From IMG/VR virus record IMGVR_UViG_3300028048_001599: a stretch of DNA of 64,000 nt, one strand, 5' to 3'. The notes beneath the pieces were generated by a model, which saw only the letters and a program-made list of their open reading frames with translations, searched no databases and was not told the origin of the DNA. Of this stretch, positions 1-64,000 are shown in pieces. The stretch is from a virus (Duplodnaviria > Heunggongvirae > Uroviricota > Caudoviricetes). The translations under genes were made by a program, and so were the position numbers. Position 1 is the stretch's first letter; each line of letters starts with the position of its first letter.

Positions 1-1791
1 GTTTCTGATGCTGACTTTACCGATAATACATATTATGCTATCGTAACTGATAAAAATAATAATATTGTATCAAAGAAGATGGTATCAACACAGAATACTG
101 GTAGTGCTAATATTAAGGTAAACGGTGAGACCAAAACATTCTTTAAGGTATCAACACTTCAGGCACAGGGACCGGAACTCAAGCGTATGAATAATAACAC
201 TGGTTATGTTAAGAATGGTGACTTTATGAAGTACTCTTTCAGTATTAAGGGAACTTCTGCAAAGTATGATTTAAGCACAATGAAGATTTACGTTAAGTAT
301 AATGGTGAATCAGATTATACAGCTTTGAGTGCATCAGATATTGGTACAGTTAAAAATGATACAGCATTTAAGAATCTTTCAGCAGGTGATAAACTTGCAA
401 AGAAGGCATTTATTACTGAGGATAAGAAGTACATCTACTTCAGAGCTACTGATTACAGTGATGCTAATGTTGCAGTTGGTGTGTGTAAAGAGGGTACAAC
501 AACAGATTACATGTCTAATAACTTACAGCAGTATACAGGTATAGCTTCTTCCTTTGCAAATACAGCAACAATAAAAGTAAACGGGGTAGCTGTTCCAAGC
601 ACTGAGGATAGTACGCATAAGAGGGCATCAACTACTGGCGGTCAGGCTGGTACAAACTGTAAAGTTCTGAAGGCTTCTGTTCCGGTAATCGGTAGTTCTT
701 CATCTTCTGAATTGAAACTCAGTATTGATGCTAAGGATACATACACACAGAATGGCGAAGCTCCTATTTGGGCAGCTTATGAATTGTATAAATACAGTGG
801 TACAGCTGATAATGGTACATACTTAGATACAGGGGTAGCTACAGCTGCTTCCGCTGATGATTCAGTTACAGGTGGTAAACAGTTACCTAATATGGTTACT
901 AATAAGACTAAGAGTACCACTAAGGTATTACTTACTGCTTATAGTTTGGATAGCTTCAAGAAGAATTTACAGTCTACAATTGATACATATGGTGAAGGTA
1001 ACTACTTGATTGTATTCAGAAAATCACTTATGAATAATCAAGGTAAACATGCTTTCAATAATATAACTCACCATAAAGCGTTCCCATTCAAGATTGTGAA
1101 TGCTTCTGCTAAACCTACAATATCCGCTTCGTCCATCTCTTCCTACAGTGCATCAGCTAAGACAACTGTAAAGATAACAAAGCTTGGTGGACAGGCTATA
1201 AAGGTACCGGTTGTGGAGTTAAAAACATGGCTTAACGCTCATAAAATGGTAGCAAAGATTTATGATGATAACAATGTTGTTGTTAGTACTAAGAATATTG
1301 ATGCTGCTATGTGTATCTCTAACGGTTCACCTAATGAAAATTATGTAATTTTGGATTCTTCTGGTGATTACGTTACAGGTTTCAAATACACATTTGCTCC
1401 TGTATACACATCAGAGAAACGTAAGTTCAATGTTGTTGTAACTAATACAGAAGGTACTAGAATGGCTACTTCTACAAATGTGAACTTCTCAGTAGTAGCT
1501 AATCCGTCTTTGAAAGCACTTGAGAATACAAGTACTTGTACTGAAACAATGAAGTTGGGACAAAGTTTCGTGATGAAGGGTAGTAGTACAGGTGGTTCTG
1601 GTAGTGTTAAGTATAAGTACGAATATAGACTTTTGTCTAGTTCAACATTTATTTTGAAGAGTGATTATTCGACAAGCACTTCTGCTTCTGTTCAACCGAC
1701 ATCAGAGGGTGAGTTTATCTGTAGAATAACAGTTAAAGACGCGTCCAACAAAGAAGTTTATAAAGAGTTCCATGTAGTTTGTACGAAGTAA
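1..1791 (+). CDS. Ig-like repeat surface/structural protein, 5'-partial. The reading frame is open back to the window start.
   Basis: Long ORF with no stop in frame upstream of the M at 79. It contains repeated beta-rich Ig-like segments (S/T-rich, VKNxT motifs). It is followed by a hairpin terminator. Confidence 0.6.
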   Translation, partial: VSDADFTDNTYYAIVTDKNNNIVSKKMVSTQNTGSANIKVNGETKTFFKVSTLQAQGPELKRMNNNTGYVKNGDFMKYSFSIKGTSAKYDLSTMKIYVKYNGESDYTALSASDIGTVKNDTAFKNLSAGDKLAKKAFITEDKKYIYFRATDYSDANVAVGVCKEGTTTDYMSNNLQQYTGIASSFANTATIKVNGVAVPSTEDSTHKRASTTGGQAGTNCKVLKASVPVIGSSSSSELKLSIDAKDTYTQNGEAPIWAAYELYKYSGTADNGTYLDTGVATAASADDSVTGGKQLPNMVTNKTKSTTKVLLTAYSLDSFKKNLQSTIDTYGEGNYLIVFRKSLMNNQGKHAFNNITHHKAFPFKIVNASAKPTISASSISSYSASAKTTVKITKLGGQAIKVPVVELKTWLNAHKMVAKIYDDNNVVVSTKNIDAAMCISNGSPNENYVILDSSGDYVTGFKYTFAPVYTSEKRKFNVVVTNTEGTRMATSTNVNFSVVANPSLKALENTSTCTETMKLGQSFVMKGSSTGGSGSVKYKYEYRLLSSSTFILKSDYSTSTSASVQPTSEGEFICRITVKDASNKEVYKEFHVVCTK

Positions 1792-1814
1792 TAGTACAAA
1801 CAATTGAGTAGGTT

Positions 1815-1848
1815 AGGGGTACATGTTTAATATGTACCCCTAATTTTA
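1815..1848 (+). terminator. Rho-independent terminator
   Basis: Perfect hairpin aggggtacat...atgtacccct followed by AATTTT. Confidence 0.65.
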
Positions 1849-1867
1849 AGAAAAAGGAGGGGTTCTT

Positions 1868-8366: not shown

Positions 8367-8391
8367 TGGGGGTAGTTTAATGCTACCCCCA
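8367..8391 (+). terminator. Stem-loop or terminator after the giant gene
   Basis: A 9-bp perfect stem tgggggtag/ctaccccca. There is no clear T-tract. Confidence 0.45.
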
Positions 8392-12017: not shown

Positions 12018-12581
12018 GTGATAAAGAAGTCAGAAATAGTAAGACTTGCAGAGAGTAAGGTTGACCTGATAGAATATTTCAATACTTACGTTGTCGGTGA
12101 GGTAAAGATAGGTAATCATAGACAAGTAGTAAAACCTATCCAAAAAGGTGGTTCAACAATATGTCCTCTTCATGCTGAAACAGACGCTTCATTTAAGGTG
12201 TTTCAGAAAAACGGTTTAACATTGTTTCATTGTTTTGGTTGTAATACTGGTGGTTCTGTTGTTGACTTGTATAGACGCATAGAGGGGCAAAAGAAGGGGG
12301 TATCAATGTCGAAAGATGATGCCGCAAAAAGTTTATTGTCCTTATACGGTTTTGAGGAGATAGCACAGGAGGCATTACAAGACGTAAATCCTTTAAAGTT
12401 GGCACTTGAAAAAATAAGGGGTTTCAAGAAAGTTGAAATCAACCAAACATTCAATATTATCACATTTAATCAGCAAAATAATAAAATAAGGTTGCAAACT
12501 GATACAGAAAGAAAAATTAAACAGTTTGGTCAACTTGATAGAATGTTAAGTGCATATGTCGAAACAATGAATGAAACGTAG
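12018..12581 (+). CDS. DnaG-type primase CHC2 zinc-finger domain protein. It is stand-alone, with no TOPRIM domain.
   Basis: CPLHAETDASFKVF...FHCFGCNTGGSVVDLY matches the CHC2 zinc-binding motif of bacterial/phage primases. It has a GTG start with RBS AAAGGTTGGGGTA. Confidence 0.65.
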   Translation: MIKKSEIVRLAESKVDLIEYFNTYVVGEVKIGNHRQVVKPIQKGGSTICPLHAETDASFKVFQKNGLTLFHCFGCNTGGSVVDLYRRIEGQKKGVSMSKDDAAKSLLSLYGFEEIAQEALQDVNPLKLALEKIRGFKKVEINQTFNIITFNQQNNKIRLQTDTERKIKQFGQLDRMLSAYVETMNET

Positions 12582-18755: not shown

Positions 18756-20945
18756 ATGGCTAAGAAACATAAGAAACTTCAAACTATTACTGCTTGTATT
18801 CTTTCGGCAATGCTTGTATCGAGTATGTCTGCAATGACTGCATTTGCGGCAGAAGACGATGCTGAAGGTATTACTGACTGGGACGATGGTGCAGTCGATG
18901 CTGGTACAGATGATACCGCATGGGGTGACGATGATAATACTTATGACAATGGTACTACTGAAGACTTTGTAGACACAGATACAGATTCGGAAGGAACGGA
19001 TGAAGATTTCGGTGGTGACGGTTGGGAAGACCCAGTATATGACGGTGGAACAGATGGAGGTTTTGGCGACGAAGATTGGGAAGACCCAACATATGACGAT
19101 GGAACAGATGATTCTCAGGAAGATGTAGACTGGGGTACAGGCACTGGCGAAGTCGAAGGTGGTCTTGAAGAAGGTGACCTTGGAGAAGGCGATTTCGACA
19201 CAGACGGGGGTGACGAAGACGCTCCTATTGACTGGGACTTAGGCGACGATGATGACGAAGACGCCCCTATTGACTGGGACTTAGGTGACGATGATGACGG
19301 TACTGAAGAAACACCTGATTGGGACTTAGGTGACGATGATGACGGTACTGAAGAAACACCTGATTGGGACTTAGGCGAAGGTGAAGACGGTGGAGAAGAT
19401 ACACCTATTGACTGGGACTTAGACGAAGATGATATTGACAAAACACTTGACTGCGACGGTGATGACGGTAATGAAGAAACACCTGTAGATGATACACCCA
19501 CTGACGACAATCCAGTAGACGACCCTGTAGATGATACACCTACTGACGACAATCCAGTAGACGACCCTGTAGATGATACACCTACTGACGACAATCCAGT
19601 AGACGACCCTGTAGATGATACACCTACTGACGACAATCCAGTAGACAACCCAGTAGACGACCCTGTAGATGATACACCTACAGACGGGGGTGAGGGTGAA
19701 AGTGGTGAAGAAACACCTGTAGACGATCCTACTGATGATAACCCTGTAGACGATACACCTACTGATGGTGGTGAGGGTGAAGATGGCGAAGAAACACCTG
19801 TAGACGATCCTACTGATGATAACCCTGTAGACGATACACCTACTGACGACACACCTACTGATGATAACCCTGTAGATGATACACCTACTGATGATAACCC
19901 GGTAGATGACACACCTACTGATGATAACCCTGTAGATGATAACCCTGTAGATGACACACCTACTGATGATAACCCGGTAGATGACAACCCGGTAGATGAC
20001 ACACCTACTGATGATAACCCGGTAGATGACAACCCGGTAGATGACACACCTGTAGACGATAATCCCACTGACGGTGGCGAAGACGAGAAGCCTGTTGACG
20101 GTGGTGACGATGAGACACCTGTAGAGGGTGATGATACACCTACTGATGATACACCTATCGACGGGGGTGAAGACACACCTGCTGATGATACACCTGTTGA
20201 CGGTGGTGACGATGAGACACCTGTAGAGGGTGATGATACACCTACTGATGATACACCTACTGATGATACACCTACTGATGATACACCTACTGATGATACA
20301 CCCGTTGACGGTGGTGATAGCGAGACACCTGTAGAGGGTGATGACACTCCCACGGACGACAATCCGACAGACGGTGAAGACACACCTGCTGATGATACAC
20401 CCGTAGATGGTGATGAAACACCTACTGACGGTGGTGACGATGAAACACCTGTAGAGAGTGATGACACACCTACTGACAGTGGTGAAGACACACCTTCCGA
20501 TGAAACACCTGACGATGGTGATGCTAAAACACCTGTTGACGGTTCTGAAGACGGCGAAGGTGAGGATAAAACTCCTTCCGATGAAACACCTGCCGATGAA
20601 ACACCTATAGATGGTGCTGGTTCTGAAGATGGTTCTGAAGATGGTTCTGAGGACGGTTCTGAAGACGGTTCTGAATACGGTTCTGAAGACGGTTCTGAAG
20701 ACGGTGATTCCGATAGCGAATACGTTGACGCAGTAGCTCCTATTTCTGATAACACGAATACACCTTCCAGTGGTTCTTATACTGGTGACAGTGATTACAC
20801 ACCTTCCTACTCTTACACAGATGGTGGTTCTGTAGACACTGTTAAGACTGGTGATACAATGCCGATTATGGCAATGGTTGGGGTAGCAATTGCTTCAGCA
20901 CTTGCTGGTATTGCAGCTTTCTTTAAGAGAAAGAGAGAAGACTAA
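18756..20945 (+). CDS. Secreted, extremely acidic repeat protein with a candidate sortase sorting signal. It is a putative cell-wall-anchored surface protein.
   Basis: Signal peptide MAKKHKKLQTITACILSAMLVSSMSAMTAFA. About 600 aa are D/E/T/P repeats (PVDDTPTDDN and similar). The C-terminus is VKTG-DT, then 22 hydrophobic residues, then KRKRED. This is the tripartite cell-wall sorting signal architecture, with KTG resembling sortase B motifs (NPKTG/SPKTG). Confidence 0.75.
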   Translation: MAKKHKKLQTITACILSAMLVSSMSAMTAFAAEDDAEGITDWDDGAVDAGTDDTAWGDDDNTYDNGTTEDFVDTDTDSEGTDEDFGGDGWEDPVYDGGTDGGFGDEDWEDPTYDDGTDDSQEDVDWGTGTGEVEGGLEEGDLGEGDFDTDGGDEDAPIDWDLGDDDDEDAPIDWDLGDDDDGTEETPDWDLGDDDDGTEETPDWDLGEGEDGGEDTPIDWDLDEDDIDKTLDCDGDDGNEETPVDDTPTDDNPVDDPVDDTPTDDNPVDDPVDDTPTDDNPVDDPVDDTPTDDNPVDNPVDDPVDDTPTDGGEGESGEETPVDDPTDDNPVDDTPTDGGEGEDGEETPVDDPTDDNPVDDTPTDDTPTDDNPVDDTPTDDNPVDDTPTDDNPVDDNPVDDTPTDDNPVDDNPVDDTPTDDNPVDDNPVDDTPVDDNPTDGGEDEKPVDGGDDETPVEGDDTPTDDTPIDGGEDTPADDTPVDGGDDETPVEGDDTPTDDTPTDDTPTDDTPTDDTPVDGGDSETPVEGDDTPTDDNPTDGEDTPADDTPVDGDETPTDGGDDETPVESDDTPTDSGEDTPSDETPDDGDAKTPVDGSEDGEGEDKTPSDETPADETPIDGAGSEDGSEDGSEDGSEDGSEYGSEDGSEDGDSDSEYVDAVAPISDNTNTPSSGSYTGDSDYTPSYSYTDGGSVDTVKTGDTMPIMAMVGVAIASALAGIAAFFKRKRED
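19200..20720 (+). repeat. Composite array of imperfect tandem repeats (30-45-bp units, plus a 12-bp gatggttctgaa unit at about 20618..20703)
   Basis: Visible periodic repetition encoding DAPIDWDLGDDDD, PVDDTPTDDNPVDDP, TPTDD and SEDG units. Confidence 0.85.
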
Positions 20946-25601: not shown

Positions 25602-26300
25602 ATGGTAGTAATATGTAGAGATGATTTTATAAGAATATTAAAACAGGGTTCTGCTTATGTTCTTGGGACTTCTACTTGTAATAGTGGACTTCTGACAAAT
25701 CAGGGTTCAACTAATAGAAGATATATAAGAACACAAAAGTACAGACAAACACTTGTTGATAGTATTAGGTCAGCTATCAAAAATAGGGTGTTTAATATGA
25801 ATCTTGAAACGGATATTAAACTGTACACACCAACATTTGTCGACACTAATCCATATGCGGTAATGAGAAACCCTCTCAGTGATGTCCGTAACGAAGAGTT
25901 GGTTATAAAGACCGATTGTATTGAGATTCAGACTCGTGATAAAGATGACTCAATTTCAGTAGTTACAAGAGCACTTCGTGGTACATCATACAAATCTGAT
26001 AAGTGTTATCGTACCTCGTATTATTTTGGGGGTAATGTGAAGGTTGGTCAGTCTAATTATGTATATATTGCGGAAACAATTGAACTACCAAGCACTTCGG
26101 CATACTCCAGTGTGATAACTTATTCTCCCGCATTTTTTGTAATATATGCAGTAAAGACCGATAAAGAGGTGCCAATACCTTGTCATTCAACGCCTATCGG
26201 TGCTAAGGCAGATGAAATACTTCGTGACGAGGAGGAAAAATCGAGTGCAAAGAATAAGTCAAATGCACGAAAAAGGAAGGCGATTAAAAATGAGTTTTAA
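25602..26300 (+). CDS. Hypothetical protein
   Basis: ORF with RBS AAGGAGA. Confidence 0.55.
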   Translation: MVVICRDDFIRILKQGSAYVLGTSTCNSGLLTNQGSTNRRYIRTQKYRQTLVDSIRSAIKNRVFNMNLETDIKLYTPTFVDTNPYAVMRNPLSDVRNEELVIKTDCIEIQTRDKDDSISVVTRALRGTSYKSDKCYRTSYYFGGNVKVGQSNYVYIAETIELPSTSAYSSVITYSPAFFVIYAVKTDKEVPIPCHSTPIGAKADEILRDEEEKSSAKNKSNARKRKAIKNEF

Positions 26301-39707: not shown

Positions 39708-39743
39708 ATAGTAAATAATAATTTTATAAAAGGGGGTAAATAT

Positions 39744-40139
39744 ATGTCATATCAGAAAAAGTACTGGCTCGAACATAAATTACCTGATAGTAATATTTGG
39801 AAAGGCTGGATAAATTTATACAGTACGTGTATAACGGATTTACCAAAAGAAATATTTGGTACATATTGGTTTGAAAAGACATCAGTAGGTTGGCGGGGTT
39901 ACTTTTGGTTAAACAATCAGACCGAACAAGACGCTGTAAACAATAACCAATTTGTAGTCACAGCAGGTATTTGGAGACCTGAAGTAACATTCAAAACACC
40001 GCCTATGTCTATGCAAGAAGCTGAAGCAAGATTACGGTACTTAGAGGAAATATCAAGCAATTACACAGTCATTCCGAGGATAATATGTAGAATTGAAGAT
40101 AGTGTGATATTGTCAAAGTGTCATGTTATGGAATATTGA
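39744..40139 (+). CDS. Hypothetical protein
   Basis: ORF with RBS AGGGGGTAA. Confidence 0.5.
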   Translation: MSYQKKYWLEHKLPDSNIWKGWINLYSTCITDLPKEIFGTYWFEKTSVGWRGYFWLNNQTEQDAVNNNQFVVTAGIWRPEVTFKTPPMSMQEAEARLRYLEEISSNYTVIPRIICRIEDSVILSKCHVMEY

Positions 40140-41499: not shown

Positions 41500-41818
41500 T
41501 GGTATTTTATGGTAAAATTTGTAGAAAGCTCTACGGCTCGATTTAAGGGGATTTTCATAGCCGAGGGGTAGTTTCTCAAATATCAATAAAAAATCGCTCA
41601 CAGGGCTTCACAGGGCAAAATAGAGCTATTCTGAGGTTCAGTTGTCAGGTGGTCGGTTGATATTTGGTTGTAGTTGGTCATTATTGTTAAGTCGGTGGAA
41701 TGACAGATTTTTCCAATGTTGTATTATTTTTCGAGGACATAGAATAATTAAATACTACTTGAATTAGTACCAAAAAATTCATATGTAGCAATAATAAATT
41801 GCAAAGGAGTTGTTAAAA

Positions 41819-42700
41819 TTGTTAGTAAAAGAACTAAGGGATAATTCTGAATTACCTGAAAAATTTATAGATACTTTGCTCGAGACTTGTCCTGATTGTG
41901 GTTCGGACATGCAAATTAACGATTCACTTAGGGAATTAAGCTGTAGCAATCCTTATTGTAAAGGTAAGGTAGCACAGAGAATGGTTTCTTTACTTGCAGA
42001 TATGGGGGTAAAGAACATGGGTGAATCTCGTTGTTTGAAGTTTATTGAAGAAACAGGGTTGAAATATCCGGCATCTATTCTTCAATGGGAACCTTCAGAT
42101 GGTGACATAGGAGACTTATCCTCAGACTTCCTAAATGGTATCAAGGAACAGATAGACAGTCATCGTTCAATGATGTTGTGGGAGTATATAAAATATTCAA
42201 ATATTCCATACTTGAGGGATACGGCAAGAGAATTGTTTAAGGGGTATAATGACCTTAAACAATTTTATGCTATACTTGAATCGTATGGTGACCATGGGGT
42301 ATTTTTTATTCAGGATATACTGAAAATTAAGGATGAGGGTGTAGTATCCATAAGGGCACTGAATATTTATACTTCTCTTGTTACCTACAAGGAAGAGTTA
42401 CTCTACGGAATAAATTTCGTAAATATCATAGTTCCTCAGTCAACATTGAATGTTTGTATTTCGACTTCTGTAGGAAATGGTTACTCGTCCAAAGCAGATT
42501 TTGTAAACCAAATGAATCAGAGATATGGTGATATTTGTCACATCAACTTCTTATCTTCGGTGACTAAAAACTGTGATTATCTGATATGGTCAAAACAGGG
42601 TGCGCCCACATCAAAGGTTAATAAAGCTACGAAGTATGATATCTCAATACTGACTGGTGAGGAGTTTGAAAGAATGTTGAGGGATAAATACAATGGCTAG
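41819..42700 (+). CDS. LigA-type DNA ligase C-terminal fragment (Cys4 zinc finger plus helix-hairpin-helix region)
   Basis: CPDCGSDMQINDSLRELSCSNPYCKGK matches the LigA zinc-finger pattern CPvCGS...L.C.NP.C. It is followed by HhH-like GVKNMGESRCLKFIE. The start is TTG 41810 or 41819. Confidence 0.6.
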   Translation: MLVKELRDNSELPEKFIDTLLETCPDCGSDMQINDSLRELSCSNPYCKGKVAQRMVSLLADMGVKNMGESRCLKFIEETGLKYPASILQWEPSDGDIGDLSSDFLNGIKEQIDSHRSMMLWEYIKYSNIPYLRDTARELFKGYNDLKQFYAILESYGDHGVFFIQDILKIKDEGVVSIRALNIYTSLVTYKEELLYGINFVNIIVPQSTLNVCISTSVGNGYSSKADFVNQMNQRYGDICHINFLSSVTKNCDYLIWSKQGAPTSKVNKATKYDISILTGEEFERMLRDKYNG

Positions 42701-43254: not shown

Positions 43255-43632
43255 GTGATACTGTTGTCAGAGTTAGACGAGAATGTAGAAACAGAGGGTG
43301 TAGGTGTCACACCAGAAAAAGACATAACACCGATAAAGACTAAGATTATACATACTATTATTTGGTGTTCTTATTTTGTGCTTGGTATAATTATTACAAT
43401 AGTAGCAATGCTTGTACAAAAAGAAATAACGATTAACTACAGTTCTTCGCAAATACCTTTAATAGTACTAATGTTTTTATCAGTAAGTGCTCAAAAGTAT
43501 ATAGGTCTTATGGGAGCAGTAGGGGTATTTTTTGCGATTAAGCGGAAAAGTTTCCCTAAATACTTTGCATTTATTTTTGGATTTTATACAGTCCTTTTAA
43601 TATTTGCTATAATAGGAGTGGTAATACTATAA
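43255..43632 (+). CDS. Small integral membrane protein (3-4 TM helices)
   Basis: GTG start. Hydrophobic helices. Confidence 0.5.
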   Translation: MILLSELDENVETEGVGVTPEKDITPIKTKIIHTIIWCSYFVLGIIITIVAMLVQKEITINYSSSQIPLIVLMFLSVSAQKYIGLMGAVGVFFAIKRKSFPKYFAFIFGFYTVLLIFAIIGVVIL

Positions 43633-45422
43633 TGGAAAAGAAACATCGTGATATAGTGATTAAGTACATGGAGTACTTCACTGAAACAACAGGAAAATCA
43701 GTTGATGACTTTTTTGCAGAGTTGTCAGGGTCGCCATCATGGCTGACATCTAATATTGTATCAACACTGAATAATAAGGGTATAAGTAAAGATAACCTTT
43801 TTGAGTACAAGGACTTAATTCATAGGTACGATAAAAGAGTATCAAAGACTGAGGGTGAGTTTTACACACCTGCTGTATGGTGTAGAGAAGCCCATAAGTA
43901 TATCAAAGACCTTTGTGGTTCAGACTGGGGTAGAGTGAATATTTGGGATGCATCTTGTGGTACTGGAAATCTACTTGCAGAAATTGATTATCCACACGAT
44001 AAGTTGTTCTGTTCAACTTTGAATGGTGAGGACATTGATATTGTTAAGACAAGACTTCCTGATGTTGAATCCTTTAAGCTTGATTTTCTCAATGAACGTG
44101 ATTATGACGATATGAACGAGTTCTTCTCTGAAAATTTACCTAATAGTCTTAGGGAGAAACTTCGTAACAATGAACCGTTCTTGTTCTTTATGAACCCACC
44201 GTATAGTGGAAATACACAGTCAGAGGTAGCAGAAATAATGCGACAGGAAAATCTTCCCAACGCATCTGAGGCATTTTGTCAGTTCTATCATAGGATTGAC
44301 ATGCTTTGTGATTACTATAACCTCACAAATGTTTACATTGCTTTCTTCCATCCGCTTTCAAAATATAAGTACCTGTTTAACAAAACAAGTCAATACAAGT
44401 TTGAGCGTGGTTTTTGTTTTGATAGGAAGGAGTTCAAGGGGACTTCAAACTTTGATACAACATGGTATGTTGGTCTTTACTTATGGAAGTCCACTGAAGC
44501 ACCTGTAAAGATGGATTCTTTTCCATTTATAAGAAAAGAGAATCATGATGGTACTATTGTAGATTGTGAAGAAATATATGTTGGTAACGATACTGACTAT
44601 AAAAAATCGCTCAGGGGTAGTTCCTCGGTGGGGTACATGTTCCTACCTGAATGTAACGGAAATGCAATCGACACTTCAAAGTCTGTAAAGGTTAAGAAAA
44701 ATGCAATAGGCTACTTTTCAAATCCATTTATCGACAAATCATCAGCTATGACAAGTAGTTGGTTTGATACTGTACCTTATTGTGACAACTATTCAATTAC
44801 TCCTGATGTATTTTTCAAGTTTGTACCGTTTGTACTTCTTAATGGTATGCGTAGTTCTGGTGCAATTCAGAACAGTAACTTTACAATTCATAGTCCTGAC
44901 GAGGGACTGGGTTACAAGGATTGGTTAATGGATAACCTCCCTCTGTTTTTGTTCTCACGTCATGCAAGATTCAGGTCAGTAAGGGGTATTGAATACGGTG
45001 GTTCAAAAATTGACATTGCAAACTCGATGTTTCCTGCTAAAAAGACCGATGTTCAGCAGATTATTACAGACGAGGTTCTTCTTGAGGACATCAATAATTC
45101 TGAAGCTAAGAATGATTTCATTGTTCAACTTATAAAATCAAATTATAATAGTTTCAGTGCTCCTGCACGTGACTTTTTCGATTTCTGTATGGTTAATGTT
45201 CTTGACAGTCTTACAGAAAATAAGCGTAAGAGTGACAGTTATGCTGGTGGTACTCAGTGTTGGGATGCTGGTATATTCCAAGTTAGAAAGTTACCTACAT
45301 TCTGGACACCGGATAAAGAAAAGAAGTATTTTGAATTACAGAATGACCTTGTAAGCTCACTCTCAGATGGGGTATATGATTTCGGACTTGTAGACAAGGG
45401 TTGGAAAAAAGAAGTATTTTGA
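43632..45422 (+). CDS. Gamma-class N6-adenine DNA methyltransferase with a long C-terminal (target-recognition-like) region
   Basis: Motif I IWDASCGTGNLL (D/E-x-xCGxGxFL) lies upstream of motif IV FFMNPPYSGN (NPPY). This order is that of the gamma class (Type IIG / HsdM / PglX-like). It is 596 aa with no nuclease motif seen. The 3' end is modified by an 88-bp tandem duplication. Confidence 0.7.
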   Translation: MEKKHRDIVIKYMEYFTETTGKSVDDFFAELSGSPSWLTSNIVSTLNNKGISKDNLFEYKDLIHRYDKRVSKTEGEFYTPAVWCREAHKYIKDLCGSDWGRVNIWDASCGTGNLLAEIDYPHDKLFCSTLNGEDIDIVKTRLPDVESFKLDFLNERDYDDMNEFFSENLPNSLREKLRNNEPFLFFMNPPYSGNTQSEVAEIMRQENLPNASEAFCQFYHRIDMLCDYYNLTNVYIAFFHPLSKYKYLFNKTSQYKFERGFCFDRKEFKGTSNFDTTWYVGLYLWKSTEAPVKMDSFPFIRKENHDGTIVDCEEIYVGNDTDYKKSLRGSSSVGYMFLPECNGNAIDTSKSVKVKKNAIGYFSNPFIDKSSAMTSSWFDTVPYCDNYSITPDVFFKFVPFVLLNGMRSSGAIQNSNFTIHSPDEGLGYKDWLMDNLPLFLFSRHARFRSVRGIEYGGSKIDIANSMFPAKKTDVQQIITDEVLLEDINNSEAKNDFIVQLIKSNYNSFSAPARDFFDFCMVNVLDSLTENKRKSDSYAGGTQCWDAGIFQVRKLPTFWTPDKEKKYFELQNDLVSSLSDGVYDFGLVDKGWKKEVF

Positions 45423-45502
45423 ATTACAGAATGACCTTGTAAGCTCACTCTCAGATGGGGTATATGATTTCGGACTTGTAGACAAGGGTTGGAAAAAAGA
45501 AG
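45319..45502 (+). repeat. Perfect 88-bp tandem duplication (two copies: 45327..45414 and 45415..45502, plus 8 shared flanking bases)
   Basis: Identical 88-mers TATTTTGAATTACAGAATGACC...GGTTGGAAAAAAGAAG are directly adjacent. 88 is not a multiple of 3, so copy 2 puts a TGA in frame and ends the MTase ORF. Confidence 0.9.
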
Positions 45503-48468: not shown

Positions 48469-48485
48469 GTTAGGGGTTGAACATT

Positions 48486-49460: not shown

Positions 49461-49484
49461 TAAAAAGTTAATAAAATCAAAGGG

Positions 49485-49521
49485 GTAGCACATCTAAATG
49501 GTGTGCTATTTACATTTTTTC
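49485..49521 (+). terminator. Rho-independent terminator
   Basis: tagcacatc-taaatg-gtgtgcta followed by TTTACATTTTTT. Confidence 0.6.
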
Positions 49522-52877: not shown

Positions 52878-53322
52878 CCGAAATGAATATACCGAGAACG
52901 GTAGTAAACGGGAAATATGGGGGTATCAGTTCCTTTTAGATGGACATTTACTGAAGCAGGAGGTTATAAAAGCGAGGGTAAATTCTGATGACACACGATT
53001 GATGCGTTACATCAGATGTTATCAGTGGGCTTTTGAGAAGATAAGTGGTTATATCAATACCAATAGTATTGGTAGAGATACTCTTAATATTTATTTTACC
53101 AATAGTACCATAAATACGTGGTTGCATAATGGTAAGGTGTATAAGGATTATCGTATAGCCTTTGATAAAGTAATGGGGGTACTTGACAATATTCCTATGA
53201 CCTTGAAATTTATTAAGGTTGACCGTAATTGGTCTTTTAGAAAACTGTTGGTGAACGATAATATAACAAGGGAGCGTTATTCAAACCTTGCATCATTTCT
53301 TAATTCAATGGAGGGGGACTAA
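52858..53322 (+). CDS. Hypothetical protein
   Basis: ATG after GCAGGAGGTTTACA. Confidence 0.5.
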   Translation: MLVVKVDRNEYTENGSKREIWGYQFLLDGHLLKQEVIKARVNSDDTRLMRYIRCYQWAFEKISGYINTNSIGRDTLNIYFTNSTINTWLHNGKVYKDYRIAFDKVMGVLDNIPMTLKFIKVDRNWSFRKLLVNDNITRERYSNLASFLNSMEGD

Positions 53323-56300
53323 TGCTAACAGGTGTATTAAAATATAGAGATTTAAGTAGTAAAGACTACGATGGAACAAATATGGATTATACCTTTAATG
53401 TTAAGGCTGCGGAGTTTCCTGATGTTCTTTGGTTGTCACTTGTAACGACTGAGACTGATGTTTTTAAACTTGTCGATATCAATAAGATGATTCACAAGTG
53501 TGTAAAACCGGAAAAGTTTGATAAAGACGTGAGTGATATCGCTACAGGTTCTTGTCGAATTGACGTTGGTAGTTCAGTAAAAACAAATGCAGTAAATACA
53601 ATCTTCGCTGCACGTATAGGTTCAGCAGTAAGGTACGCTTTGAGTGTCCCTGGTAGGACAGTATTGAATGAAAACGGTGACTTGTTAGCCACTGACAAAA
53701 TAGGGGGTAATGAGTTCAAGGTCAAATATTTCTGTAGTGTCCCTGTTGAAGTCTACATTAAAACTAAGTTTTTGGAACTTAGTGTAACAAAGGTTGATTC
53801 ATGCGAGGTATTCCCTAAACTTCAGGAAAAGAATAAATACGGTGATATTGTATCAATTACTCCTATTTCAAACATCGCCGTAAAGAAAAATGAAGAATTT
53901 TTAGGTTTTAAACCTCCTATGAAGGAAGTCGATGATGTTCCTGAATGGGGGTTAAGACAGACAATAGAAGAAGTAATCGAAGCAAATCCGAATAAGAACA
54001 CATCATGGATTTTGGATAGACATTACGTCATTGTTGATAAAAACAACGTTGATGAAATTATTGAAAAATTCCTAAATTATGACGGGCTTATAGCGTTCGA
54101 TACTGAAACAACAGGTCTTGATATTACATTTCGCTCAGCACAGGGCAATGGTGATACGATTGTAGGACTTTCATTATCTTATAAAGCAGGAGAGGGTTAT
54201 TACTTCCCACTTGCTCATAAGAAATTTGAGAACCTTACAGATGATATCGTCTACTTCATGCAAACAAAAATTCGTCCTATTCTTGAAGGTAAAAAGATAA
54301 TCTGTCATAACACAGCGTTCGACTGGAAGGTAGGCTATCTTTACGGTATCAACACGAATGTAGTGTTTGATACACTTGTTGCTTTCAATTGTACATTCCG
54401 TTATCAGTACGGTAAGGGTTACGAAACAGGATTGAAAGCGTTGGCAAAGAATATTCTTGGGTTAGACATGTTCGACCTTGAGGACTTTGTAATAGGAGAA
54501 TGGGGTAGTACTGAAATAAACTTTTCTGACCTACCTTACGAACTTGTTCGTAGATACGCAACTGCTGATGCTGATATGACATTGTCGTTGTATGATTGGC
54601 TTGTTAAGAATGATATACTCAATCGGTTTAATGCTGTACGTGTTCATGATTTAGAGGTACAATTTGCAAAGGTTGTAGCTTATTCTGAATATTGGGGGTA
54701 TCGTGTTGATATGGCGAAACTTCCTGATATGGTAACGAAAAATACTGAACAGTTAAAAACAGCTGAGCAGGAGATGTACCGACTTGCAGGTCATGAATTT
54801 AACCCTAATTCTCCGAAGCAGTTAAAGCAGATAATGTACGAGGAGTTAGGTATTGAGCAAATCAACGGTCAGGATAGTACCAAAGCGGAAATTTTGAAGG
54901 AACTTGATAAAATTCAAAATGCTGATGGTACTCGTAAATATCCTTTTGTTCATGCACTGCTTGAATATCGTAACAAAGAAGGTACGAATAAGAACTTCAT
55001 TAAAAAGCGTGACGAGTTTATAACTCCTGACGGGTTTATTTTCCCTCATGTATTCCAATTTGGTACTGATACTGGTCGTGTATCAATTAAAGAGCCGAAC
55101 TATCAGTCATATGATAAACTTGTAAAGCATTATATAGTACCAAGAGAGGGATATGTTCACTTTGACTGTGACTACTCTCAGATTGAATATCGTGTTCTTG
55201 CGTCAATGGCACAACAGACAAACCTTTGTGATGCTCTTGCCGACCCTGACATGGACTATCATACATACCAAGCAGCGAGAATGTTTAATGTTCCTTACGC
55301 ATCTGTAACATCTGCACTTAGAAAACAGTCAAAAGGTATCAACTTTGGACTTCCGTATGGTATGGAAGATAAGTCATTGGGTAAACGTATATTTGGACAG
55401 GTAACACCTGAGAATACTGCCAAGGCTGCTTTACTTCGTAAGAAGTACTTTCAGGGTCAGGAAAAGATACAGCAGTTCTTTGAAGTTGTGCGAGCACAGG
55501 GTGTAGCAGAGGGGTATACTGAAACCTGGCTTGGACGTCGTAGATACTATGATAAACAGCGTTTTGACGTTGGTTCAATTCGTAGACAGGCGGGCAATCA
55601 TGTTATACAGGGTTGTGTTGATGGTGATACTTTGATTCAGACGAAAGAACTTGGTATTGTTAAAATTAAGGACATAGTTGGGACAAGTCTGAATATATGG
55701 AATGGTGAGGTTTGGACTCATGGAGATGTGATGTACTCCGGTGAAAAACAGAAGTGCATTGTAAGATTCAAAGGCGGACAGGAGTTTATTTGTAGTCCAA
55801 TACATAAATTTCTTGTTATAGATGAAAACAATGAAGGACATTGGGTTGAATGTAAGGACTTGGTTAATGGGTTAAGTATACGTGTTAATGCCAATTATTC
55901 AAATTCAAATACACTGATTTGTTCATATTATGACGTAGAACATGTATTTGGTACTACTGATAGTATAAAAATAGGAAAGAAAATTGGTGGTATGGTATCA
56001 GTCGGGGTAATCAATGACACAGGTTTTCATAGATTATGTTGTTCAGATTATCAGAGATATATTGTTGAGGGTATATTCAATGATATGTTTAAAGATTGTG
56101 CTGTAGTGCGTGGTTTTGTAGCTGGACTGTTCTCTAAATATTTCAAGGACAATGGTTTCGATGGTGACACTGTAGAACTTACATTTATGGATAATGAATG
56201 GTATCATACATTATGTAAGAACGTACAAAAAGCATTATTGATGCACGGTATTAAAAGCACGGTGTCTAATAGTTCTATCGTAGTAAATGGGGTAGATGTT

Positions 56301-57377
56301 GAGAGACTTAAAAAGTTAGTAAAACTACCTGCTTGTAGTTTAGATGACTATGCTGGTGGGGTAGAGATAGAGTCTGTAGAAATCACTGATGAATATATTG
56401 ACATGTATGACGTATGTAACACAGATAATGGTTTTTACATGGCAGATGGGGTAATCACTCATAACACTGCGGCAGACATCTACAAGATGGGTGTCGTATC
56501 GATGTTTGATATGATATGTCGAAATGGTTGGCTTGGTAAGGTACTTATTAATGCATTTGTACATGATGAAATCCTTATTGAAATACATAATTCGATAAAT
56601 CCTTATGAGTTCCTTAAGTACTGGCGTGATGAATATCAGGTAAAAATAAAGGGGTTCTGTCAACTTTACGCAGGTGCTGGGTTCGGTGAGAATTGGTACG
56701 TGGCTAAATCTCAGGATTTACCTCCGGGATTCATTCAGGAATGTATTGATAAAGCTGATACAATGGAATGGGACGGTGACCTTGAAAAATTTCTCAAACA
56801 GTGTAATGATGATTACTTTGATTATAAGGTAAGACGTGTTCGTGATTATATCACTGACAGTGAGAACGATAATCAGGTAATTAAACCGCTTATAAATGCA
56901 CTTCTATTAGAGGTTACGTCAGATGCTCTTAACATTAGTGAAAAGGGGCTTACAAATCAGTATAAGGCACTTAATGAAATAATCGAAAAATTTCATGAGG
57001 TTTATCCGACTTACTTTAATAATGAGATGCAGATATATAAGATACTACCACCTGATGCAGTAACGTCTAACAGTAGTCAACAGCAGGTCAGTGTGAATAT
57101 AGCACCTATTGATAAGGAAAAATCAATGGTAGAAAGGTGCAAAAATTATGGGGTAGCTGTAGACGTTGATAATATGACAATATATTTGTTATTTGTACAG
57201 AATCAGCAGGTAATGAGTGTAATAAAGGGGTATTGTAATAACGATACGGGGTACAAATTAAGATTTGTAGTACCGAAGGGTGAAAAAGACGTTACTCTTA
57301 TGCAAACTCCTTACTTCATTAAAGGTGGCGATGCTTTAAGTCTGCAATCAATGTATAAAGGACTGATGACAGTATGA
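53322..57377 (+). CDS. Family A DNA polymerase (Pol I-like) with 3'-5' exonuclease, interrupted by an intein
   Basis: Exo I LIAFDTETTGLD. Motif A HFDCDYSQIEYRVLA. Motif B RKQSKGINFGLPYG. Motif C VHDEILIE. The QG...TAADI block is split by a Cys...HN element. Confidence 0.85.
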   Translation: MLTGVLKYRDLSSKDYDGTNMDYTFNVKAAEFPDVLWLSLVTTETDVFKLVDINKMIHKCVKPEKFDKDVSDIATGSCRIDVGSSVKTNAVNTIFAARIGSAVRYALSVPGRTVLNENGDLLATDKIGGNEFKVKYFCSVPVEVYIKTKFLELSVTKVDSCEVFPKLQEKNKYGDIVSITPISNIAVKKNEEFLGFKPPMKEVDDVPEWGLRQTIEEVIEANPNKNTSWILDRHYVIVDKNNVDEIIEKFLNYDGLIAFDTETTGLDITFRSAQGNGDTIVGLSLSYKAGEGYYFPLAHKKFENLTDDIVYFMQTKIRPILEGKKIICHNTAFDWKVGYLYGINTNVVFDTLVAFNCTFRYQYGKGYETGLKALAKNILGLDMFDLEDFVIGEWGSTEINFSDLPYELVRRYATADADMTLSLYDWLVKNDILNRFNAVRVHDLEVQFAKVVAYSEYWGYRVDMAKLPDMVTKNTEQLKTAEQEMYRLAGHEFNPNSPKQLKQIMYEELGIEQINGQDSTKAEILKELDKIQNADGTRKYPFVHALLEYRNKEGTNKNFIKKRDEFITPDGFIFPHVFQFGTDTGRVSIKEPNYQSYDKLVKHYIVPREGYVHFDCDYSQIEYRVLASMAQQTNLCDALADPDMDYHTYQAARMFNVPYASVTSALRKQSKGINFGLPYGMEDKSLGKRIFGQVTPENTAKAALLRKKYFQGQEKIQQFFEVVRAQGVAEGYTETWLGRRRYYDKQRFDVGSIRRQAGNHVIQGCVDGDTLIQTKELGIVKIKDIVGTSLNIWNGEVWTHGDVMYSGEKQKCIVRFKGGQEFICSPIHKFLVIDENNEGHWVECKDLVNGLSIRVNANYSNSNTLICSYYDVEHVFGTTDSIKIGKKIGGMVSVGVINDTGFHRLCCSDYQRYIVEGIFNDMFKDCAVVRGFVAGLFSKYFKDNGFDGDTVELTFMDNEWYHTLCKNVQKALLMHGIKSTVSNSSIVVNGVDVERLKKLVKLPACSLDDYAGGVEIESVEITDEYIDMYDVCNTDNGFYMADGVITHNTAADIYKMGVVSMFDMICRNGWLGKVLINAFVHDEILIEIHNSINPYEFLKYWRDEYQVKIKGFCQLYAGAGFGENWYVAKSQDLPPGFIQECIDKADTMEWDGDLEKFLKQCNDDYFDYKVRRVRDYITDSENDNQVIKPLINALLLEVTSDALNISEKGLTNQYKALNEIIEKFHEVYPTYFNNEMQIYKILPPDAVTSNSSQQQVSVNIAPIDKEKSMVERCKNYGVAVDVDNMTIYLLFVQNQQVMSVIKGYCNNDTGYKLRFVVPKGEKDVTLMQTPYFIKGGDALSLQSMYKGLMTV
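55614..56465 (+). other. Intein (284 aa) inserted between NHVIQG and TAADIYKMG of the polymerase. It probably contains a homing-endonuclease-like insert.
   Basis: Block A CVDGDTLIQ. Block B SPIHKFLV (TxxH). C-terminal VCNTDNGFYMADGVITHN followed by Thr (+1). The middle has a LAGLIDADG-like segment RGFVAGLFSKYFKDNGFDGD. Confidence 0.7.
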
Positions 57378-59927: not shown

Positions 59928-60644
59928 ATGCAATTATTTAATGACGATGCAATTAAAATTTTGAAGTCACTTCCTGATGAATCAATAGATTTGATAGTGA
60001 CCGACCCACCTTATAGAACAACCCCACATGGTAATTGTGGGAACGCAGGTGGAATGTTAAAAACGAAATTAAGTAGGCAAGGTAAGATATTTGAGCATAA
60101 TGACGTGAAGATTACTGATTATGCACCAGAGTTTTTTCGTATACTTAAGGATGGTACTCATTGTTATGTAATGACAAACCACTATAATTTGCTTGAAATG
60201 CTAACTGTATTCACGGATGTTGGTTTTCATTTTGTCAAATCACTTATATGGGACAAAACAAACAAGATAATGGGTAAATATTATATGTCACAGTTTGAAT
60301 ATATACTATTTTTCAGAAAAGGCACAGACCGTTCGATAAATAATGCAGGCACACCTGATATTTTGCGTATACCAAACAAGAAGTCAAAATACAATGGTAC
60401 AAATGCTCATGACACAGAAAAGCCTGTTGAACTTATGAGAATACTTATTGAAAATAGTAGTAATGAGGGTGATTTAGTATGTGACCCGTTTTTAGGCATC
60501 GGAGCTACAGGGGTAGCTGCTATTGAAACTGGTCGTGACTTTGTGGGTTCTGAAATAGACGAGGGGTATTTTAAAATAGCACAGCAAAGAATTGAGGATG
60601 CAGAAAATAGTGCTGATTTACTTGACTTTAGTAATTTGGAATAA
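59928..60644 (+). CDS. Beta-class DNA methyltransferase (N6A/N4C; DPPY motif precedes the FxGxG motif)
   Basis: LIVTDPPY near the N-terminus. VCDPFLGIGATGVAAIETGRDFVGSEID (AdoMet-binding motif I) near the C-terminus. Confidence 0.75.
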   Translation: MQLFNDDAIKILKSLPDESIDLIVTDPPYRTTPHGNCGNAGGMLKTKLSRQGKIFEHNDVKITDYAPEFFRILKDGTHCYVMTNHYNLLEMLTVFTDVGFHFVKSLIWDKTNKIMGKYYMSQFEYILFFRKGTDRSINNAGTPDILRIPNKKSKYNGTNAHDTEKPVELMRILIENSSNEGDLVCDPFLGIGATGVAAIETGRDFVGSEIDEGYFKIAQQRIEDAENSADLLDFSNLE

Positions 60645-60667
60645 TTTCAAAAAAATGTAACTTAGTA

Positions 60668-61241: not shown

Positions 61242-61255
61242 GGTGGTGTTTTGTT

Positions 61256-62194: not shown

Positions 62195-62414
62195 GTAATT
62201 ACAGGGAGTTATTTTCCGAAAAAGAAATAAGATTATTTTTGAGGTTGTAATCAAGTTTCGTTTCGGAAATAGTTCTCTTTTTGTCACAGATTGGCTGTAA
62301 GGTGTGGAAGGTCAAAAATTAATAAAGTTAGTCTTTGGGTAAAAAAGTCGCTTAAAAAGGCTCACAGGCAATTTCCGATAGATGGTAATAAATGGTAAGA
62401 AATGAGGTCATAAC

Positions 62415-63560
62415 ATGGCAAAGAGTAAGGAAGTCAAAGAATCGAAAGAATCAGGGGTATTAGAGACCGCTGACGTTAAGAAGTCAAAAACAAAGGCAAA
62501 GAAAAGCACATCAAAATCAAAGGTTGACACCAATGAAAAATCAAAGGTTGACACCAATGAAAAATCAAAGGTTGACACCAAAAAGATAAAGACTACAAAA
62601 ACATCAAGTCCAAAGAAGCCAAAGAAACCTGTTGACCCATATAAATTAAATCTATCACATGCAAGAGTTGCTCAGACTTGTTATAAAGTGCGTAACGAAG
62701 AAAAGAATTGGGTAACGGAATATGGTGATAGTTACAGTATAACACTATTTAGAAAGCGTATCTTCAAAGTAATACTGTCCGAAATAATGTTAGCAAAGGG
62801 GTATAAGTCAGTGGACGCACGACTCAGGGCTGAAGCAATTCTTCCGGGTATCAATCTTAAGAGTTACTCAACAATTCTAACATTTATGTACGCTTATATC
62901 TATGATATTGAGTTTCGTGATATGTTTAATTACAATATAGACCGAAATATACATAAAGTATTAAATGCTATTCAATTTTACACGGTTGACTACAAGCCAA
63001 AAATCACGATGCTTGAGTCCAATTATTCAAAGGTCAGCGAAATGAAGGTTGTACTCACATATCTATTTGAGGTATTGTTTATAATTCGTAAATATGGTTT
63101 AATGACTGGTAAGCAGTTGATAATCACAAGGGGTACTAATTCAGTTCTGAAGGATATCTGTTGTAAGGAGTTTAAGGAACATTATTATTTCTTTCATAGA
63201 GGTTCAAAGTTGTCAATAGTACCTTGTAGAAAGATGGATATAACACAGTATACTGATACTGGTAACATATATAGTTGTGTTGACATTGTTAATCAAATAA
63301 ACTATAACACACTTATTCGTCTACTAACATTAAAAAAGATGTGTAAGGATGCTTATGATGACACAATAAAACTTTCGGAGTTGCACATGATTGATTATCT
63401 TGTAGGTAATAAAATCAACACACCATTTTCTCTTTATGACATGTCAATAACCACAGTTGTAAATGAGTTCGGTAACACTTGTAAATTTGATAAAGAAATA
63501 GCATTTTATAGGGGTAATGAGTACACAAACTTAGATTGGTGGTACAAGAAGGATGTTTGA
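62415..63560 (+). CDS. Hypothetical protein with a Lys-rich, histone-H1-like N-terminus carrying KSKVDTNE repeats
   Basis: ORF with RBS TGAGGTCA. 24-bp tandem repeats at about 62510..62585. Confidence 0.55.
   Translation: MAKSKEVKESKESGVLETADVKKSKTKAKKSTSKSKVDTNEKSKVDTNEKSKVDTKKIKTTKTSSPKKPKKPVDPYKLNLSHARVAQTCYKVRNEEKNWVTEYGDSYSITLFRKRIFKVILSEIMLAKGYKSVDARLRAEAILPGINLKSYSTILTFMYAYIYDIEFRDMFNYNIDRNIHKVLNAIQFYTVDYKPKITMLESNYSKVSEMKVVLTYLFEVLFIIRKYGLMTGKQLIITRGTNSVLKDICCKEFKEHYYFFHRGSKLSIVPCRKMDITQYTDTGNIYSCVDIVNQINYNTLIRLLTLKKMCKDAYDDTIKLSELHMIDYLVGNKINTPFSLYDMSITTVVNEFGNTCKFDKEIAFYRGNEYTNLDWWYKKDV
62510..62585 (+). repeat. 24-bp tandem repeat, 3 copies (aaatcaaaggttgacaccaatgaa)
   Basis: Visible perfect copies encoding KSKVDTNE. 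Confidence 0.85.
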
Positions 63561-63882
63561 TAAGATAAATAAGTTAGCTATTATTGTTGGTTCACTTTTG
63601 TTAGGTAGTATGATAGCTGTGGTTGTATGTGTCACTTGTTTATTTTCTGCTGACATTGAGTCACTAAGTGCCCCAAAGATTGAATCGGGTGTAATAGTTG
63701 ATAAGTATGATTACATATCCTTAGATCCTGGTAATACTTCTGAGGTTTACATGATAGTGTATGAAAAAGTCGTAGATGGTAAAAAGGTTCAAAGGAAGGA
63801 CAGAGTGACTTCGGTCACCTATTCAAGTTATAAAGTAGGTGACACCTTTGAGCGTAAGAACCACATAAATAAAGGAAATTAA
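63553..63882 (+). CDS. Small membrane protein with an N-terminal TM helix
   Basis: ORF overlapping the upstream stop. N-terminus LAIIVGSLLLGSMIAVVVCVTCLF. Confidence 0.5.
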   Translation: MFDKINKLAIIVGSLLLGSMIAVVVCVTCLFSADIESLSAPKIESGVIVDKYDYISLDPGNTSEVYMIVYEKVVDGKKVQRKDRVTSVTYSSYKVGDTFERKNHINKGN

Positions 63883-64000
63883 ACTTGGGGTGATATTAAA
63901 ATGATTGATATTTATAATAGGCATAGAAAGGAAATGAAGTAATGAATAAAGAAGTCAATTATACAGTTTGTTATTTTGAAGATAATAATAGAATATATGT

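Follow-up and report, generated by a model that had tools for sequence, protein, structure and literature searches.

A 64,000-nucleotide stretch of the Caudoviricetes record IMGVR_UViG_3300028048_001599 from IMG/VR (hereafter the window) carries the hexamer GGGGTA 137 times on its + strand and 3 times on its - strand, where each copy reads as TACCCC on the + strand. The analyses presented here show strong selection for this exact hexamer on a single DNA strand of a jumbo phage of roughly 324 kb. The window is identical to a stretch of a 323,685-bp metagenomic contig (ENA ERZ27252073 k141_446481) and therefore derives from a jumbo phage. Its GC content is 34.5%, its GC skew is positive throughout (about +0.2), and every predicted gene lies on the + strand. 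The best reading of the motif is that it is a strand-specific DNA signal for a directional machine, since a word that is strictly one-stranded, exact and evenly spaced points to a machine that moves directionally on DNA or reads single-stranded DNA.

GGGGTA is over-represented on one strand

A first-pass annotation of the window, made from the sequence alone, had described a massive strand-specific over-representation of GGGGTA, and the counts bear this out. The + strand density is 2.14 per kb, and the observed copies are an 11-fold excess over the 12.3 expected from zero-order base composition. When dinucleotide-preserving shuffles of both strands were counted, 18.2 +/- 4.5 copies were obtained, compared with 140 observed. 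Within genes, the 125 observed copies compare with 25.2 +/- 4.4 after synonymous-codon shuffling (z = 22.7) and with 14.5 +/- 3.6 when codons were permuted. The local counts given at first were also reproduced: the stretch from 1.9 to 8.4 kb holds 15 copies (16 with the site at 1816), that from 40 to 43.6 kb holds 10, and the DNA polymerase gene holds 11. GGGGTA is by far the top hexamer of the window (z = 35); in two control genomes, those of T7 and of the unidirectional Bacillus phage Mgbh1, the top hexamer has a z of about 11-12.

The 18 words that differ from GGGGTA by a single mismatch all range from 0 to 2 times expectation (copy numbers: GGGGTG 15, GGGGTT 10, AGGGTA 18, and GGCGTA 0). 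The sequence that flanks the sites is almost information-free, with a weak preference that varies among lineages, such as the disfavoured G at position +2 in the window. The proposal that the motif is not an amino-acid effect, based on its presence in all three frames, held when it was set against both the synonymous-codon and the codon-permutation nulls: 71, 31, and 23 copies were found in the three frames, where 10.9, 11.4, and 2.9 were expected, so that every frame is enriched. GGG is indeed a disfavoured glycine codon outside the motif, as had been stated. It makes up 166 of the 1166 glycine codons, and 72 are left once the motif copies are removed (about 7% of glycine codons outside the motif). 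The statement that TACCCC is almost absent is right as to number, as there are 3 copies on the + strand, but not as to depletion, because composition predicts 2.6. In genes, 1 copy of TACCCC was found and 2.4 +/- 1.5 were expected after synonymous shuffling, a comparison of low statistical power. TACCCC is neither depleted nor enriched.

We give next to no probability to the idea that the excess is a by-product of composition, codon-pair, or dipeptide preferences. The background is raised by the excess of G over C and by preferences for the codons GTA and GGT, and the maximal-order Markov ratio of GGGGTA is just 1.44, a value that is low because the sub-words themselves consist of motif. However, the synonymous, codon-permutation, and dinucleotide nulls yield 14-25 copies where 125-140 are observed, the neighbour words are at background, and relatives that lack the motif (see below) but have the same GC content and gene content hold GGGGTA at only 0.2-3.4 times expectation. 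These results strongly support a signal that acts at the nucleic-acid level, not an amino-acid or composition effect. The suggestion of a selected, polar nucleic-acid signal made in the first-pass annotation is thus upheld by the shuffles and the neighbour words, and also by the site occupancy and the clade-wide conservation described in the next sections.

Sites are evenly spaced and fill half of their synonymous opportunities

The 137 sites comprise 123 that are purely intragenic, 8 at Shine-Dalgarno (SD) distance before a start codon, and 6 that are otherwise intergenic. Where the encoded amino acids would allow GGGGTA by synonymous choice, it is present in 57%, 48%, and 47% of the opportunities in frames 0, 1, and 2, respectively. 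The glycine-valine (G-V) dipeptide is coded as GGG-GTA in 71 of 124 cases and is itself over-represented 1.41-fold.

The spacing of sites also departs from chance. The mean gap between sites is 463 nt, and the coefficient of variation (CV) of the gaps is 0.68, compared with 0.99 for random placement (P < 2e-4); the variance-to-mean ratio of site counts in 4-kb bins is 0.51. The median distance from an occupied site to the nearest other site is 273 nt, compared with about 135-137 nt for unoccupied potential sites (P = 1e-7), and random positions are about 135 nt from the nearest site. The sites therefore repel one another, and their spacing is more even than chance. Neither gene length nor position along a gene alters their density, and non-coding DNA has a similar one. 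In a comparison of near-identical strains, 0 of 144 single-nucleotide polymorphisms fell in motif positions and 2 were expected, a level of divergence that is too low to show purifying selection.

The longest motif-free gap, of 1748 nt (19133..20879, P = 0.02), coincides with the 15-nt-repeat core of the gene at 18756-20945. This repeat-rich gene encodes 729 amino acids with extensin-like Pro/Thr repeats built from 15-nt units, has a raised GC content, and carries a long, spurious antisense open reading frame. Other enriched words of the window (CACCTACTGA, GATACACC, and CCTGTAGA) originate from this single tandem-repeat gene and were set aside as unrelated to the motif. A separate tandem duplication at 45319-45502, with a period of 88 bp and a 96-nt exact repeat at 45319 and 45407, has duplicated a GGGGTA site (45369 and 45457); it lies at the 3' end of an N6 methyltransferase gene, directly before the ribosome-binding site (RBS) of the next gene.

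The presence of the motif in terminator stems, also noted at first, was confirmed for three gene-end hairpins on the + strand, each with the motif in its 5' arm (1816, 8369, and 49482). In the hairpin at 1810..1846 (-22.1 kcal/mol, z = -5.1), GGGGTA at 1816 in the 5' arm faces TACCCC at 1835 in the 3' arm, and a U-rich tract follows. The hairpin GGGGGTAG...CTACCCCC at 8367..8391 (-18.9 kcal/mol, z = -4.5) pairs the motif at 8369 with its complement at 8384. The terminator-like hairpin at 49483..49511 (-15.5 kcal/mol, z = -5.1) has the motif at its start and a U run after it. The further claim that the motif is the core of the dominant RBS did not stand. The RBSs of the window are of ordinary Firmicute SD type (GGAGG, GAGGTG, and GGTGGT types), and the motif is found at SD distance in only 8 of 78 predicted starts. 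The RBS GGGGGTAAATATATG at 39731..39746 on the + strand is one of these eight, and the others contain the sites at 12009, 16458, 22913, 40160, 40768, 45503, and 59917.

Related phages keep the rule but change the word

Relatives were identified by homology to the product of the polymerase gene (53322..57377, + strand), a family A DNA polymerase with a 3'-5' exonuclease domain and an intein. The analysis covered about 60 loci, each a stretch of roughly 20 kb surrounding this gene, so that the relatives are sampled within 10 kb of this marker. The intein occupies residues of about 809-1048 of the window's polymerase, some relatives have none, and 4 of the GGGGTA sites of the gene are inside the intein region. 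The polymerase homologues delimit a large clade of uncultured phages, found in metagenomes of gut, rumen-like, and compost origin on contigs that reach 590 kb. Searches of INPHARED by megablast and tblastn gave no cultured or deposited phage above 30% polymerase identity, and scans of IMG/VR gave no useful related phages. Hints of the host are a Lachnospiraceae bin (a metagenome-assembled genome) for one relative and, as nearest bacterial homologues of the CHAP protein, CHAP-dockerin proteins of Ruminococcus and Lachnoclostridium at roughly 31% identity.

Across about 50 relatives, whose GC content ranges from 30 to 48% and whose polymerase identity falls from 78% to about 40%, the k-mer spectrum has a single dominant word, on the + strand. 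Eight such words were found, depending on the lineage (GGGGTA, AGGGGTA, GGGGGTA, GGGGTAG, GGGTATT, GGGTAYG, GGGTATC, and GGTATT), and they have GGGTA or GGTA as their common core. The ratio of observed to expected copies (O/E) of the word is 5-26 in the relatives, and its density is 1.1-4 per kb. The reverse complement of the lineage word is present in 0-3 copies, except for 6 in locus L057 and 9 in locus L049. Whichever word is used, the gap CV is 0.5-0.8.

On a tree of the polymerases, most of the words keep to single clades; GGGTATT, found in three places, is polyphyletic. Four lineages nested within the tree carry no such word, and a search of these for degenerate words of 5-7 nt found only ordinary, codon-driven words. 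At 74% identity, 6 site positions within the polymerase gene are shared; this number falls to 1 at about 60% and to none at about 45%. As positions turn over while density stays, we conclude that selection keeps the density and spacing of sites, not individual sites. It appears from this comparison that whatever reads the word has shifted its specificity over time and has occasionally been lost.

Among the genes that lie up to 10 kb from the polymerase gene, none was found whose presence tracks the motif type. A DNA methyltransferase, a RecD-like helicase, and an ArdC-like protein are also present in motif-less lineages. One motif-less locus (L017, 1930-4191) encodes a C5-cytosine DNA methyltransferase that is split by an intein with a LAGLIDADG domain.

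In one minus-strand gene, polarity of the motif follows the DNA strand

The motif could in principle be an mRNA-level element: an anti-SD pairing element, as the first-pass annotation had offered among its candidates, a ribosome pausing or standby site, an mRNA stabilizer, or the site of an RNA-binding protein. Because the genes of the window all run with the motif strand, every one of its mRNAs contains the word; GGGGU pairs with the anti-SD using one wobble pair, and 8 sites act as RBSs. Several results nevertheless stand against an element of this type. Canonical SD words are depleted in genes (GGAGG 0.67-fold, GGAGGT 0.51-fold, and GAGGTG 0.29-fold of expectation), and GGGGTG, which is a better anti-SD partner, is at 1.25 times expectation in genes compared with 5.1 times for GGGGTA. 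The words of sister lineages (GGGTATT, GGGTAYG, and GGGTATC) are poor SD mimics, and the density of sites is independent of gene length and of position in the gene.

A gene on the opposite strand provides a further comparison. No strand switch was seen around the polymerase gene in the loci analyzed, and in about 1.2 Mb of the clade the sole convincing minus-strand gene (L074 16852-17526; 675 bp, 224 amino acids) lies about 4 kb past the right end of the window. It has an AAGGAGG RBS, its own TTGACA-17-TATACT promoter, and a palindromic hairpin terminator. A hairpin lies on its upstream side (in the + direction) and a perfect + strand promoter, TTGACA-17-TATAAT, lies downstream of it at 17630-17658; + strand read-through of the gene is therefore unlikely. 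The gene thus faces a + promoter, in an arrangement that resembles a regulatory or early switch region. The single opportunity for GGGGTA on the genomic + strand within this gene, a Thr-Thr-Pro, is taken as ACT ACC CCT, in which ACC is a codon that is rare elsewhere, whereas the single opportunity in its own mRNA, a Gly-Val, is not taken. The + strand GC skew is still positive in this gene, whereas the AT skew flips.

With n = 1, the word is thus antisense to the mRNA of this gene and absent in the sense direction, which by our rough estimate favours a DNA-strand rule over a transcript rule by about 15-40 to 1. This one gene supports the conclusion that motif polarity follows the DNA strand and not the direction of transcription. 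Based on these results, a role at the level of mRNA, anti-SD pairing included, is largely refuted, and the probability we leave to it is very small.

A lagging-strand primase is the leading, tentative candidate for the reader

Among mechanisms, we rank first the proposal that the sites are the recognition or start sites of the phage's own lagging-strand primase, and we hold it tentatively, as a possibility that is still somewhat doubtful. On this view, a replication fork would travel with the genes and have the G-rich, leading-strand-like + strand as its lagging-strand template. For a zinc-finger primase that requires 5'-GGGGTA-3', the 3' A would be cryptic and the primer would be pppACCCC. 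The logic is that of T7 gp4, which needs 5'-GGGTC-3' and makes pppACCC, and of T4, in which GTT gives pppAC...; the initiation triplets of Firmicute DnaG enzymes are reportedly of the form xTA. Initiation of Firmicute DnaG enzymes at triplets has been described (PMC2978363). An enzyme that needs six or seven bases would meet a chance site only about every 5 kb in this AT-rich DNA; enrichment to one site per 0.25-0.7 kb would therefore be favoured, long gaps would be selected against, and the other strand would be indifferent. Altered primase specificity would give rise to lineage-specific words, and a swap to a less specific primase would give rise to motif-less lineages.

In line with a primase are the exact word, its frame independence, the occupancy of about 50% of synonymous opportunities, the G-V excess, and the under-dispersed spacing, as well as the maintenance of density over GC contents of 30-48% and 8 words and the DNA-strand-level signal in the minus-strand gene of L074. 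The phage also encodes replication proteins of its own, namely the family A polymerase, a split NAD-dependent DNA ligase, a RuvC-like resolvase, and a DnaG-type zinc-binding domain. The CHC2 zinc-binding domain is the template-reading module of the DnaG and T7 primases. In the window it is found in a stand-alone protein of 187 amino acids (12018..12581, + strand; Pfam PF01807 at 1.8e-9, PDB 1d0q at 3.5e-6, and PHROG primase families), which is a candidate reader of the motif. This protein has a conserved helical C-terminal half, and the 15 homologues found are all short, stand-alone proteins of 187-211 amino acids. An AlphaFold model of it (mean predicted local distance difference test score, pLDDT, 82) gave no significant fold match in PDB, and its top, non-significant matches were T4 primosome entries.

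Bacteriophage T7 offers the closest comparison for such an enzyme. The T7 gp4 primase recognizes 5'-(G/T)2GTC-3' and makes the primers ACCC, ACCA, and ACAC, and there are 177 sites in a lagging-strand region of about 37 kb, or about 4.8 per kb (PMC12839067). The motif resembles these sites in having a G run that is followed by T and a single extra base on the presumed lagging-strand template, a predicted primer pppACCC(C), a density of the same order, and a zinc-binding domain encoded by the phage. It differs in that the T7 density is that of chance, with sites neither enriched nor polar, whereas the words described here are 6-7 nt long, exact, and enriched 6-26-fold, and a catalytic primase has not been found.

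A number of points weigh against a primase. The CHC2 protein has a small family of 15 close homologues, and a word-indexed search did not detect this family in the broader clade that shares the motif; the family is too narrow for this protein to be the clade-wide reader, and it was rejected in that role. No primase catalytic domain (TOPRIM or AEP) was identified in the examined 80 kb or, in relatives, up to 10 kb from the polymerase gene, and no replicative helicase was identified in the window or up to that same distance in relatives. To our knowledge, known primases need only 3-5 nt, and we know of no precedent for genome-wide enrichment of primase sites. In our own count, T7 primase sites were neither enriched nor polar, so T7 was dropped as a precedent for enriched sites. 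The words GGGTATT and GGGTAYG have fixed bases 3' of TA, so that two or three bases would have to be cryptic. Replication direction is deduced from GC skew only, and the comparison of strand with transcript consists of one 675-bp gene. In addition, the polyphyly of GGGTATT is more easily explained by a host-determined signal or by exchange of reader genes between phages.

Other DNA-level readings and known polar words

A polar DNA motif of the Chi/KOPS/SRS kind and a methyltransferase target were the other two candidates of the first-pass annotation, and both are possible readings. Of these, one in which the word acts like Chi is unlikely, though it is to be taken seriously. In it, a helicase-nuclease (AddAB or RecBCD of the host, or a RecD-like enzyme encoded by the phage) would recognize the word on the 3'-ended strand and switch from degradation to repair; phage DNA that is replicating or broken would be shielded and, during the breakdown of host DNA, possibly be marked as self. 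Like bacterial Chi, the word is short, G-rich, exact, over-represented, strictly polar, and found in all frames on the G-rich, leading-strand-like strand; its sequence is lineage-specific, and its positions turn over as density is kept. Chi is over-represented in phages without RecBCD inhibitors and lacking in those with them, and its presence is patchy among related lambdoid phages (PMC3784561), which matches the loss of the word in four lineages. The polyphyly of GGGTATT would be expected if unrelated phages had a common host. A large RecD-like superfamily 1 helicase of about 1100-1260 amino acids, with an N-terminal region of about 600 amino acids in which no domain is recognizable, adjoins the polymerase gene in most relatives (e.g. 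L007 15700-19191 and L038 13719-16988); it was not seen in the examined 80 kb of the window's own phage, and its presence in motif-less lineages counts against this role. So do several quantitative differences. Chi in phages has a density of about 0.2 per kb and an O/E of 2-5 and is clustered between the origin and cos (PMC3784561), whereas the words described here reach 2-4 per kb, about 10 times the density of Chi in phages or E. coli, have an O/E of 5-26, and are evenly spaced over >80 kb. The same word is also kept across GC contents of 30-48% in phages of gut and compost, which probably have different hosts. In two regions of Ruminococcus chromosomal DNA (about 40 kb, GC content 49-54%), GGGGTA is at 0.2-0.5 times expectation on both strands, a weak test as Ruminococcus may not be the host.

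We consider it quite improbable that the motif is the target of a strand-specific modifying enzyme of the phage, such as a methyltransferase that acts on a single strand of an asymmetric site (its N6 methyltransferase is a candidate) or a ParB-HNH nickase. The marks would serve to tell the strands apart, to start replication at nicks, or to recognize self DNA. The window encodes two DNA methyltransferases, an HNH protein, and a split NAD-dependent ligase. One methyltransferase is a gamma-class N6-adenine methyltransferase-like protein of 596 amino acids with a long C-terminal region (43632..45422, + strand; Pfam PF02384 at 8.4e-5), homologues of which lie near the polymerase gene in 18 loci, and the other is a beta-class N6/N4 enzyme of 238 amino acids (59928..60644, + strand; Pfam PF01555 at 3.6e-33). 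The ParB-N plus HNH endonuclease protein, a candidate nickase (37007..38353, + strand), has matches only in close relatives and in locus L026. Asymmetric, A-containing words of 6-7 nt, with one or two flanking bases exchanged from lineage to lineage, are what MmeI, Type III, and BREX-type methyltransferases typically recognize, which speaks for modification. T5 has a split NAD ligase, which we take to resemble that of the window, and T5 DNA carries strand-specific nicks; the nick sites of T5, phiKMV, and tf are, like the motif, phage-determined sequence marks on one strand. Those sites, however, number 4-15 per genome and have a longer consensus, whereas the motif is a hexamer with hundreds of sites, and 137 nicks in one 64-kb strand would leave pieces of about 470 nt. 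We know of no modification enzyme whose sites are enriched, 2 sites per kb would bring no evident benefit, and modification gives no reason for the enrichment or the spacing. The motif-less locus L024 retains a homologue of the 596-amino acid methyltransferase, and the HNH protein is confined to close relatives. A guide for a double-stranded DNA translocase in packaging, injection, or segregation, similar to the FtsK-orienting polar sequences (KOPS) and SpoIIIE recognition sequences (SRS), is very improbable. As in these sequences and the architecture-imparting sequences (AIMS), the word is a G-rich, skewed oligomer oriented with the G-rich strand and, going by GC skew, with replication, and it is strictly polar over at least 80 kb. 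KOPS and SRS, however, are 8-mers that occur about once per 10 kb, are read by FtsK or SpoIIIE, and are avoided in the inverse orientation, whereas the motif has 2 sites per kb and TACCCC is at expectation. Domain scans of the window proteins revealed no FtsK/SpoIIIE-like gene, and even spacing at 0.25-0.7 kb has no rationale for a processive motor.

The uptake signal sequences of Pasteurellaceae and the DNA uptake sequences of Neisseriaceae occur about once per kb with even spacing, in all frames, and in the arms of terminator hairpins. The motif is like them in the order of its density and in each of these other features; it is unlike them in that they are on both strands of competent bacteria, whereas the motif is on one strand of a virus (137 vs 3). 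On the features compared here, the motif would seem to be a member of the general class of skewed, over-represented functional oligomers that fits none of the named systems. No description of the motif came up in full-text searches of the literature that covered GGGGTA in phages, enriched primase sites, skewed oligomers, nicks in phage DNA, and Chi of Clostridia.

Other features of the window and its flank

The split NAD-dependent DNA ligase is encoded on the + strand in two halves separated by 14 kb: the N-terminal, adenylation half (26200..27495) aligns with positions 11-371 of the 656 positions of phrog_3869, and the C-terminal half (41810..42700) aligns with positions 390-653. Besides the RuvC-like resolvase, products of the window include an ArdC-like metalloprotease, a CHAP lysin, a 2156-amino acid BspA-type leucine-rich repeat (LRR) protein, and a phage-encoded sortase (48477-49460). 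The BspA-type LRR protein belongs to a run of giant genes (L062 1-9924 and window 1868-8338) with products of 2844, 1234, and 2156 amino acids and a strong hairpin after each gene; the products are probably surface or tail-fibre-like proteins. In the right flank are genes for a WGR/PARP-like protein (L074 12985-14196) and a dCTP deaminase/dUTPase-like protein (L074 19039-19620). The tetramer GATC is about 16-fold under-represented in the window (12 observed, 196 expected), and the Ruminococcus loci that were retrieved are rich in GATC. This scarcity suggests avoidance of a GATC-specific host restriction system.

Implications for the phage clade

Taken together, these observations fit a clade of Firmicute jumbo phages from gut and compost that may have co-evolved its genome with a phage-encoded, strand-reading enzyme of replication or repair with a specificity of 6-7 nt, for which a primase making pppACCC(C) is the leading candidate; we offer this picture tentatively, as one that could well turn out otherwise. 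If it is true, these phages would carry a private code for priming, or for self-recognition, about every 0.3-0.7 kb on the lagging-strand template, and host DNA would have 10-50 times fewer sites. A switch of specificity (from GGGGTA to GGGTATT, GGGTAYG, or GGGGTAG) would then force the rewriting of hundreds of sites across the genome. There is a substantial chance that the mechanism itself, a virus-encoded priming or self-recognition code of 6-7 nt, is new, and full-text literature searches found no description of a virus-wide code of this kind.

Polar words such as Chi, KOPS, and uptake sequences are rare cases in which a DNA-handling machine has visibly shaped a genome, and the motif is a far stronger case, in viruses. 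Half of the synonymous opportunities are used, the amino-acid content is bent to the motif (1.41-fold for G-V), and the rule outlasts deep divergence while the word mutates. The clade thus provides a natural experiment in the re-coding of a genome upon a change in the specificity of its reader. The word is also a sequence signature by which an uncultured clade of jumbo phages can be spotted and classified in metagenomes, and its reader is a possible source of enzymes with an unusual single-strand specificity of 6-7 nt. For the biology of these viruses, the motif offers a testable idea of how giant phages may carry out lagging-strand synthesis or discriminate their own DNA from that of the host.

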